From the NCBI GenBank assembly GCA_036351255.1, contig JAZBOS010000109.1, positions 64,039 through 128,038 on the forward strand: DNA of 64,000 nt. The letters run 5' to 3'. Under the pieces are notes generated by a model. That model did not search any database. It was not told the DNA's origin and saw only the letters and a program-made list of their open reading frames with translations. The position numbers and the translations under genes are program-made. Below, in pieces: positions 560-58,221 of this stretch (positions are counted from its first letter, which is position 1; each line of letters begins with the position of its first letter). The DNA is from Bacteroides sp. (GTDB lineage: Bacteria > Bacteroidota > Bacteroidia > Bacteroidales > UBA7960).

Positions 560-817
560 AATTTGGTGATTGACATGATTGGGTTAATTAAGAAAACAAA
601 TATATGAATTTAAAAATTATTCTTGCAAAAAAGAATGGCGAAAATTAAAAAAAACCCATTAACAAATGATTAGTTCCTGCCATAAAATATTTTTTGCCAG
701 GAATTAATTTCACTAAATTGGATTTGGAATATCGAACCTTTTGGTTATCAGGAAATTTGGAACCACTCCCGGCCGGGTTTCGACCCTTGGCAAGCATGTA
801 TCCGGATCAAAAATAAA

Positions 818-926
818 ACGTAGATAAAACGAATTTTAAACGTAGTTCAGACGTAGTTCAGACGTGCACACACGTCTGAACTACGTGTTAACTACGTGTT
901 AACTACGTGTTAACTACGTCTGAACT
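818..926. repeat. Repeat element A: inverted arrays of 11-bp units around a 16-bp-stem hairpin
   Basis: The left units begin with acg at 818, 829, 840, 851 and 862 (acgtagttcag twice). The segment 851-866 is the exact reverse complement of 871-886, with loop caca. The right units are ctgaactacgt at 876, gttaactacgt three times at 887, 898 and 909, and ctgaact at 920. Confidence 0.85.
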
Positions 927-1080
927 CTGATTCTGACAAGTCCCTTCAGTGGTTTTGAATCTCCTCTTTTTCTTTCTTTTTTCAGTTGAAAAGGTAAGGG
1001 AATGCCATAGCCTCCTTGCTGGCCTTGGCAATAGGAAAGAAGATGCCGGGTATTTTTTTAAAGGAGGGCTTTCGGGTAAT

Positions 1081-21468: not shown

Positions 21469-21507
21469 GAGGCTGTCTCGAAAAAAGGAGACAGCCTCTT
21501 TTTTTTT
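21469..21507 (+). terminator. Rho-independent terminator of the rpoBC/DUF3467 unit
   Basis: The 11-bp stem gaggctgtctc / gagacagcctc is followed by T9. Confidence 0.8.
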
Positions 21508-21629: not shown

Positions 21630-21682
21630 GTTTATACGGTTTAAACCGTATAAACTCCGTTTTAACTCCGTATTAACCATGA
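21630..21682. repeat. Repeat element B: 26-bp perfect palindrome plus 11-bp tandem units
   Basis: gtttatacggttt|aaaccgtataaac occupies 21630-21655, followed by ataaactccgt / tttaactccgt / attaaccatga in 11-bp register. It matches element C at 39 of 41 positions across cggtttaaaccg..attaac. Confidence 0.8.
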
Positions 21683-25465: not shown

Positions 25466-25661
25466 GGATTTTTACGGATTACGCTGATTAAAGTAAAGTG
25501 CCAAGGGCATGGGGCATGGAGCAAAGGGCACCGAGTAAAAGGCGTGGGGCATGGAGTCAAGGGCAAGGGGTAGAGGATATGGTGGATGGTGGCGTACAAT
25601 CAACCTTGAATCTTGAACTTTAAACTTTGAACCTTGAACCCCTAACTCCAAACGTCCTACC
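25466..25661. repeat. Array of 28 in-phase degenerate heptanucleotides filling the dinB-dnaE2 spacer
   Basis: The plus strand reads ..ccaaggg catgggg catggag caaaggg caccgag taaaagg cgtgggg catggag tcaaggg caagggg tagagga tatggtg gatggtg gcgtaca atcaacc ttgaatc ttgaact ttaaact ttgaacc ttgaacc cctaact ccaaacg tcctacc. No indel breaks the phase. Confidence 0.9.
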
Positions 25662-57970: not shown

Positions 57971-58156
57971 ATATTTCGTTGTGCATCCAGTTAAAATCTT
58001 AAGTAGCTGTCTCAAAAGCAGGAGGCAGCCGCTTTTTTTTGCCTGAGCCGCACTGTCCCCGAACCTCAATCCACCTCTATTTTCAGAGCAATGACCCCGG
58101 GTATGAGCCATCATGCTAAACACGACAGATCCATGCCAGGGACATACCTGGCTCAT

Positions 58157-58221
58157 AGTTAATACGGAGTTTATTCGGTTTAAACCGAATAAACTCCGTA
58201 TTAACTCCGTATTAACTCCGA
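58157..58221. repeat. Repeat element C: 50-bp perfect palindrome plus 11-bp tandem units
   Basis: The segment 58157-58206, agttaatacggagtttattcggttt|aaaccgaataaactccgtattaact, pairs perfectly, which I checked base by base. The 11-bp units ataaactccgt / attaactccgt / attaactccga lie at 58189, 58200 and 58211. Confidence 0.9.

Follow-up and report, generated by a model that had tools for sequence, protein, structure and literature searches.

The window analysed here, a stretch of 64,000 nucleotides from Bacteroides sp. (assembly GCA_036351255.1, contig JAZBOS010000109.1, positions 64,039 to 128,038 of the forward strand), carries a palindromic array of 11-bp units, element A, between a peroxiredoxin gene and a gene for a TM2 protein. 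The array occupies positions 807–930, from a TCA terminus (807–809) to a TGA terminus (928–930), as read from the sequence and from a unit-phased print of the 24 family copies of the host genome; features are given without strand unless one is named. A spacer (937–1088), weakly similar to the right spacers of other copies, separates the array from a 30-nt hairpin on the minus strand (1089–1118), the peroxiredoxin terminator. Two arrays of a sister family, B/C, also lie in the window, element B at 21630–21682 and element C at 58157–58221. The host genome (G000) is a 3.65 Mb draft metagenome-assembled genome (MAG) of 162 contigs with 3% contamination; C and L numbers below denote contigs and loci.

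Architecture and conservation of element A

Positions 810–930 resolve into 11 successive 11-mers in a single phase, namely five left units, a centre and five right units. The left arm (810–864) is degenerate and AT-rich, with the units AAAATAAAACG, TAGATAAAACG, AATTTTAAACG, TAGTTCAGACG and again TAGTTCAGACG, all ending in ACG, and the right arm (876–930) is conserved, with one CTGAACTACGT, three GTTAACTACGT and CTGAACTCTGA as the last unit. Between them, the central unit TGCACACACGT (865–875) holds the 4-nt loop CACA (867–870), flanked by the two 16-nt arms of a perfect inverted-repeat core (851–886) that was checked base by base. The preliminary description had located left-hand ACG starts at 818, 829, 840, 851 and 862, two copies of ACGTAGTTCAG (840–850 and 851–861), exact reverse complementarity of 851–866 (ACGTAGTTCAGACGTG) and 871–886 around the loop, and right-hand ACGT ends at 875, 886, 897, 908 and 919 in the unit order just given; the sequence bears out each of these coordinates. 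Its picture of about ten units in mirror arrays holds for the array as such, which is slightly larger than described, with 11 units, and does not hold for the left arm, which is not a simple mirror.

An inverted-repeat search returned 66-nt arms (801–866 and 871–936) that show 77% complementarity across a 4-nt gap, period-11 arrays were called at element A by Tandem Repeats Finder, and the BLAST extents of other A copies stretch over window positions 807–936. The motif AACTNCGTNTT matches the window eight times against 0.56 expected, a count reached in none of 100 shuffles, and G000 contains 71 instances of the unit pair AACTACGTNTNAACTACGT and none of its reversed control. Genome-wide, 54 arrays were scored at lag 11, compared with 4 at lag 10, 19 at lag 12 and none at lag 13. 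Chance origin of the element is excluded.

All 24 A copies of G000 are intergenic, show no orientation bias towards neighbouring genes (7/7/6/3) and fall into the same 11-nt register across both arms and the centre when printed. Across 56 copies, the right-arm units (nTnAACTACGT) are strongly conserved, with 1.35–1.75 bit per position in R1–R3; the left arm keeps TAnnTnAnACG and has lost G3 and T4, with a mean information of 0.9–1.3 bit per position, and arm-to-arm complementarity drops outward from 0.87 to 0.38. The outer right-arm units are thus conserved without a pairing partner, which argues that they are kept for sequence recognition and not for hairpin stability. The centres of other A copies carry TGTG, CGTG, TATG or CACA as loop; relative to the fixed arm polarity, some copies have CACA and others its complement TGTG, and the 14-nt centre mostly follows strict purine–pyrimidine alternation (ACGTGTGTGCACGT and similar). 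Inversion between the arms could account for such variation, as could a centre prone to form Z-DNA.

The preliminary description treated the element as a member of a family that should be detectable elsewhere, and the family does recur: beyond the 24 copies in G000, the A unit pair was detected in five relatives out of 40, of which four are species of the same genus and one belongs to another genus in the same family, with 2 to 75 occurrences per carrier genome. A collection-wide scan revealed small palindromic arrays that resemble A (ACGTAGTTnAnACG), in few copies, in other Bacteroidota MAGs, and single matches only, at chance level, in unrelated phyla. The window copy has orthologs in G005 and on metagenome contig LSQX01297327. 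The peroxiredoxin–TM2 gap measures ~520 bp in G000 and G005 and ~100–200 bp in G009 and three metagenome relatives, where the element is absent and another terminator is present; exact empty-site boundaries were not obtained from these four, which lack a ~400-bp segment, because their intergenic DNA is too diverged. Between G000 and G005, A-family array cores are 0.79 identical, against 0.62 for the flanks.

About ten 11-bp units per array, one per helical turn and set around a centre, recall the R1 parC/ParR system and phased-iteron operators (omega, BldC, OmpR/PhoB, SARP); R1 parC itself consists of two sets of five 11-bp iterons. A captured plasmid-type centromere or iteron origin, which this likeness of two blocks around a centre would favour, is nevertheless hardly credible. 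The blocks are inverted and not direct, ~100 copies per genome occupy unrelated intergenic sites, and the arrays reside in the chromosome and have orthologs in other species. The neighbours here are the peroxiredoxin and TM2 genes, and no partition genes adjoin the array in the window, although no search was aimed at ParR/ParM. Unlike these systems, the arrays have inverted arms, ~100 chromosomal solo copies and no partition ATPase, and the candidate binder proposed below is, by prediction, neither a ribbon-helix-helix nor a winged-helix protein.

Linkage of the arrays to DUF6266 genes

Arrays of G000 were distinguished by their unit types, which are ACGTAGTTnAn for A, ACGGAGTTnAT for B/C and AACCGGTGTTT (AACCGGTnTTT) for D. 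One A copy, the A master array (C68:5346–5469), lies ~60–180 bp upstream of a gene on the minus strand (C68:4651–5286) whose product belongs to DUF6266 (PF19781, E = 1.6e-17). In tblastn searches, all four full-length DUF6266 genes of G000 have an 11-bp-unit palindrome 80–130 bp upstream of the ATG, with a type A unit at the C68 gene, B/C at the C151 gene, D (AACCGGTnTTT) at the C90 gene and a ACGGGTTTTAA type at the C92 gene, this last one a singleton without a solo family. The other three of the four unit types are dispersed as solo families, and several paralogue–array pairs coexist in this one genome, with 24 solo copies of A, ~57 of B/C (about 55–60 copies) and ~14 of D. We found no paper on a link between DUF6266 and such arrays.

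For 29 DUF6266 loci from 13 genomes, lag-11 periodicity was scored over the 220 nt upstream, with 2673 control upstream regions for comparison. Scores of at least 18/22 were obtained at 14 of the 29 loci and of at least 15/22 at 22 of them, compared with only 1% of controls reaching 18 (Mann–Whitney p = 3e-15). Six or seven of the DUF6266 genes, those with the top Pfam scores (the canonical clade), are without strong arrays. In seven other genomes, too, an array with an 11-mer of its own is found upstream of DUF6266 genes, and the unit varies from gene to gene, with more than 15 different 11-mers recorded (e.g. CCGTAGTTTAA, CCGTGTTTTAA, GAGCCGGGTTT, CAACCAATGTT, GATGCGAGTTT and GGTAGACAAAA); close orthologs have a common unit, the genes at C68, G005:C78 and G006:C16 all being A-type. 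Dispersal of the gene-adjacent unit as solo arrays was likewise found in G017 (64 matches), G027 (30) and G014 (176), with 0 matches for all controls.

PF19781 was detected in 14 of 41 relatives. Within the same taxonomic family, DUF6266 is encoded in six of the six genomes with A arrays and in two of the 19 without them (Fisher p = 1.6e-4, a value that overstates the significance because related genomes are not independent samples); of these two, G010 has the canonical clade only and G014 has its own array family. The preliminary description had suggested looking for a cognate small DNA-binding protein by co-occurrence, and DUF6266 emerges as a candidate that both co-occurs with the arrays and is physically linked to them, with one array type per paralogue.

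Master arrays sit upstream of a Bacteroidota −7 box (TAnnTTTG) located ~30–50 nt before the ATG (for example TAAATTTG, 45 nt before it) and therefore point to action on DNA and not as a 5′ untranslated region. As in phased-iteron operators, the master copy and the linked gene's promoter overlap, which makes autoregulation plausible. The degenerate arm of the A master is the promoter-proximal one, which explains the polarity of all solo A copies. A further A copy, at C21:96349–96477, keeps a C68-like DUF6266 promoter, 5′ leader and start codon on its degenerate side, with no DUF6266 open reading frame (ORF), and looks like a decayed master copy.

Placement upstream of the promoter also bears on an RNA-level explanation, in which a long transcript hairpin would act as a terminator, RNase III site or mRNA stabiliser. 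Such a role would suit the strong perfect 16-bp core with its extended stem, the copies near gene 3′ ends and the U-rich degenerate arm on the minus strand, and 11 nt corresponds to a full turn of an A-form RNA helix. Yet transcription from the promoter does not include the master copies, which lie upstream of it, the outer units are unpaired though conserved, orientation towards flanking genes is unbiased and separate canonical terminators adjoin most copies (here 1089–1118), so that an RNA element appears very unlikely. Identity of the array with an intrinsic terminator was rejected on the same absence of orientation bias and the separate terminators alongside. Rfam scans of the element and of the full cassettes described below returned miRNA-like hairpin matches only, all sub-threshold (maximum 24–28 bits against gathering thresholds of 60–95).

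Exchange between array families and the hairpin-bounded cassette

Families A and B/C have the same 11-bp phase and common termini, TCA(T/G)AGTT...AACT(A/C)TGA, and the units GTTAACTACGT and ATTAACTCCGT are identical at 9 of 11 positions. Hybrid copies with half a B/C centre occur (e.g. C147, C128, C31 and C94:89022), and at orthologous intergenic positions the array type differs between species, with A opposed to B/C or to a third type. Array-type switches were recorded for G005 L036 and G000 C88, for G005 L037 and G000 C151:66097, and for G005 L034 and G000 C90:12067, as well as for G006 L062 (A) versus G000 C38 and G005 L171 (both B/C), and for G005 L038 (A) versus G000 C113:20165 (D type). 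The preliminary description had seen in A, B and C a conserved architecture with diverged sequence, as expected of paralogous binding-site arrays or an old repeat family. The kinship of the three supports that view, and a relationship of A to B/C is upheld by the common phase and termini, the hybrids and the occupation of the same orthologous sites in sister species. The unit sequences suggest that A and B/C would be paralogous site sets, because every paralogue has its own unit. At C90:12067, C141:739 and C69:468, units of two families are mixed within one arm (e.g. CCGTATTAAC followed by ACCGGTTAAAC), a pattern that could reflect either conversion tracts or sites serving two paralogues.

The exact B/C unit is confined to G000 and its closest relative, G005, and all 18 of the G005 B/C copies examined are orthologous to G000 B/C copies, which rules out a recent burst of this family. 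Identity between the two genomes is 0.82 in the B/C array cores and 0.57 in the flanks; given this orthology and the diverged flanks, the arrays are old and maintained. A doubly changed centre, TTATTCGG...CCGAATAA, is present at a bit under half of the 55 G000 loci with a perfect centre, element C among them (its G005 ortholog is the B/C copy L174). No G005 locus has this G000-specific compensated variant, the G005 orthologs of five such loci carrying TTATACGG, and the change is found in one arm only at a single G000 locus. The presence of a compensated variant at many old loci therefore requires sequence exchange between loci (concerted evolution or gene conversion), to which we also attribute the hybrids and type switches. 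Copies would then be kept uniform by inter-locus exchange through gene conversion, together with selection; no trace of classical cut-and-paste transposition was seen.

The hairpin at 1089–1118 (GAGGCCGTTTC-N8-GAAACGGCCTC, with an 11-bp stem and an 8-nt loop) had been taken as the peroxiredoxin terminator next to the element; it does serve that gene, but its hairpin class is itself one that accompanies A copies. On the side of the degenerate arm, 13 of the 24 G000 A copies have a strong intrinsic-terminator hairpin whose stem ends 173 ± 7 bp from the centre, and 11 of these 13 hairpins form one class, GAGGCYGYCTC-N8-GAGRCRGCCTC. A like spacing (174 ± 10 bp) was measured at eight independent loci in G005 and G003. 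The genome holds 28 hairpins of this class, 11 of them 183–235 bp from an A centre and four near B/C copies; in the window, hairpins of the same class lie at 21469–21498 (GAGGCTGTCTC-N8-GAGACAGCCTC), 159 bp from element B, and at 58003–58032 (GTAGCTGTCTC-N8-GAGGCAGCCGC), 164 bp from element C. No fixed terminator spacing was seen in the B/C family, where distances range from 47 to 183 bp.

Six A copies can be aligned over ~440 bp, hairpin to hairpin, and three sites are filled in G005 and empty in G000, a cassette region in the former corresponding to a short gap in the latter. In the clearest of them (L033 and C128), the G000 gap consists of a single unrelated terminator hairpin; at the place of the window hairpin, outgroups likewise have another terminator and no cassette. 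The spacer at 937–1088 is thus probably part of a larger cassette of about 385–440 bp, whose mirror symmetry was seen in the terminal hairpins only, the spacers not mirroring each other. Hairpins annotated as ordinary terminators beside such arrays may therefore belong to a repeated cassette.

Filled and empty sites of G005 and G000, with a hairpin-bounded cassette of ~440 bp and no target duplication, are typical of IS200/IS605-derived insertion sequences (IS), and they are a reason to consider a selfish non-autonomous mobile element, either a transposable element of the miniature inverted-repeat kind (MITE) or a repetitive extragenic palindrome (REP) or REPIN, moved in trans by, for example, a RAYT/IS200-like Y1 transposase and adjacent to DUF6266 by accident. 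Copy numbers from 0 to ~75 among species of one genus and the presence of a Y1_Tnp gene in G000 would also fit. Against this, flanking direct repeats are not in excess of shuffled-partner controls for A or B/C, no arm pair was found to flank a gene, and an all-against-all BLASTP comparison revealed no multi-copy transposase in the assembly. Whether or not arrays are present, 34 of 41 relatives have Y1_Tnp, compared with six of 41 that have A arrays, and the RAYT of G000 is flanked by a different palindrome, GAGCGGAATTTGCAATTCCGCTC. Orthology of 18 of 18 B/C copies despite ~57% identical flanks speaks against a recent burst, and incidental insertion cannot account for a separate unit type at every DUF6266 paralogue. 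On balance, a mobile element is an improbable explanation. Neither the 162-contig MAG nor the loci examined yielded an autonomous partner sharing these terminal repeats, with the proviso that repeated IS elements are possibly unassembled.

Two specific candidates were discarded. A 9-bp repeat at C16:72139, ATCTTAAAG, is within the control range and lacks support as a general feature; a RAYT/REPtron link was rejected, RAYT being near-ubiquitous, having its own REP and showing no co-occurrence with the arrays. The RAYT-like Y1_Tnp gene, the only such match, lies at C88:4487–4779, cut by the contig end and preceded by the REP-like palindrome, which recurs at the contig ends of C25 and C31 and near C21:96300. 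Short palindromic units dispersed in intergenic DNA in several families per genome, a gene adjoining copies of a dispersed repeat and the absence of target-site duplication are nonetheless features that the arrays have in common with REPtrons (PMC3116915, PMC3733652). Unlike in REPtrons, the linked gene encodes DUF6266, with an FN3-like and a novel N-terminal part and no HUH/Tyr motif, and not RAYT; the repeat lies on the 5′ side of the gene only, and it consists of strict helical-phase arrays of 11-bp units, whereas a REP is a single, imperfect 20–40-bp palindrome tagged at one end with GTAG (or CGTC). GTAG is contained in every A unit and is absent from B/C units (ACGGAGTT).

Other repeat systems offer more distant parallels. 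The BrickBuilt MITE of Porphyromonas gingivalis (PMC4596501), also from Bacteroidales, is likewise strictly intergenic, lineage-restricted and made of variable short tandem units, but it has 23-nt direct repeats, leader and tail subunits and small inverted-repeat ends, without inverted 11-bp arrays or a reported linked protein gene. Eukaryotic Foldback elements and the sub-terminal arrays of hAT, CACTA and P elements resemble element A in that inverted arrays of short units, variable in number, meet at a centre; element A differs from them in its bacterial host, its length of ~120 bp, the absence of a transposase and of target-site duplication, and a conservation that peaks close to the centre and falls off outward along just one arm. 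Literature searches on bacterial foldback or 11-bp palindromic repeats returned only general REP/REPIN/MITE papers.

Several unrelated repeats were encountered in the same searches. The BLASTP hunt turned up small DUF559-like endonuclease-domain genes (C92:5951–6376, C115:130565–131032 and C115:132999–133490), all three embedded in a CCCCC...GGGGG palindrome family (CCCCCCAACCCCCTCCAAAGGGGGAG...) that is unrelated to A, together with heptamer arrays. Tandem units of 7 bp (AACCTTG, AGGTTTC, GGTTCAA, AGGGATT and others) are abundant, as at window positions 25602–25647 and 40740–40773 and at many G000 contig ends (e.g. C141, C154 and C114), where they adjoin other repeat families; lag-7 arrays number 110 genome-wide, against 4–20 at lags 8, 10 and 12. 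In the rumen Bacteroidales MAG RGIG8179, bases 1–260 of locus L083 comprise four adjoining tandem arrays, (CACAGAT)n, (TAGGAGAAATG)n, (GGGGTATAGGA)n and (GATACGTAGTT)n, three of which have 11-bp units.

DUF6266 as a candidate array-binding protein

DUF6266 is represented by 812 cluster representatives in a library of 1.8 billion proteins, all of ~210 aa, assigned to Bacteroidota by every source name examined and named only 'DUF6266 family protein' in their sources (Bacteroidales, Lentimicrobium, Mariniphaga). An AlphaFold2 model built with 65 homologues (pLDDT, the per-residue confidence score, of 85) comprises a low-confidence basic N-terminus, a beta-hairpin (19–32), three helices (44–93) and a C-terminal beta-sandwich (117–190). 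In Foldseek, the sandwich half matches FN3 domains only (E about 4e-3). Searching PDB, PHROGs, NCBIfam and PADLOC by sequence and by profile gave no match other than FN3, and a literature search found no paper that mentions DUF6266. At L220/L221 (1346–1845), a canonical DUF6266 gene is followed immediately downstream by one for a 491-aa protein that matches DUF6266 weakly and Flg_new_2 faintly, and the DUF6266 domain therefore also occurs in larger proteins.

Building on the observed family membership, the linkage to and co-occurrence with DUF6266 genes, the conservation above flanks and the spread of variants between loci, we favour, with a probability of roughly 0.6, the reading that element A represents, without the gene, a copy of the operator-type array found at the C68 paralogue of DUF6266 and would serve as a multi-site docking platform. 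The 11-bp units would be single docking sites, one per helical turn, on which the cognate DUF6266 would bind side by side; the protein has a basic N-terminal beta-hairpin/helical part, and its C-terminal FN3-like domain could mediate protein–protein contacts. At the master copy, where the gene-proximal arm reaches the promoter, binding would autoregulate the DUF6266 gene; at solo copies such as the one that separates peroxiredoxin from TM2, the array with its bound protein would influence the neighbourhood as a roadblock, an insulator or an architectural site. The pairing of units with paralogues suggests, at the level of sequence, that each DUF6266 paralogue would bind its own array set genome-wide.

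The binder could instead be a different protein (BldC/MerR-like, ribbon-helix-helix or nucleoid), of which DUF6266 would be only a regulated target. BldC, ParR and OmpR-type proteins bind phased direct repeats, and DUF6266 is without a recognised DNA-binding fold. We nonetheless regard a separate binder as unlikely, given that the arrays co-occur with DUF6266 itself and that the unit changes with each paralogue (more than 15 11-mers), which would call for a matching set of unlinked, co-diversifying regulators. No small helix-turn-helix gene or ORF stands beside DUF6266 at the two loci inspected, C68 and C90.

Several points weigh against a docking role for DUF6266. Its predicted fold is not a recognised DNA-binding fold; Foldseek found no nuclease, transposase or classical DNA-binding fold for the protein and no match for the N-terminal half, and FN3 domains are more typically found in structural proteins of phages or in surface proteins. 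The binder may instead be a regulator encoded in trans and co-evolving with each paralogue. Between G000 and G005, the copy in the window shows no better conservation than its surroundings (0.61 against 0.64 for the flanks), and to the overstated Fisher value must be added that the gene calls come from our own rough ORF and hexamer caller, applied to a 162-contig MAG.

A broader and more tentative proposal is that DUF6266 constitutes an unrecognised class of sequence-specific phased-array binders, each with a private 11-mer code and cognate arrays maintained genome-wide, which might also propagate these arrays, either by templated conversion or by hairpin-bounded cassettes that replace terminators. 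If true, this would amount to a transposase-free system of repeat propagation and genome marking in Bacteroidota, would provide the first functional hypothesis for DUF6266 and would explain the conspicuous 11-bp palindromic repeats of these genomes. The more than 15 paralogue-specific 11-mers would then represent natural protein–DNA pairs in which the divergence of specificity after gene duplication could be followed, and direct tests would become possible of how dispersed binding sites evolve in concert, switches of array type at orthologous loci included.

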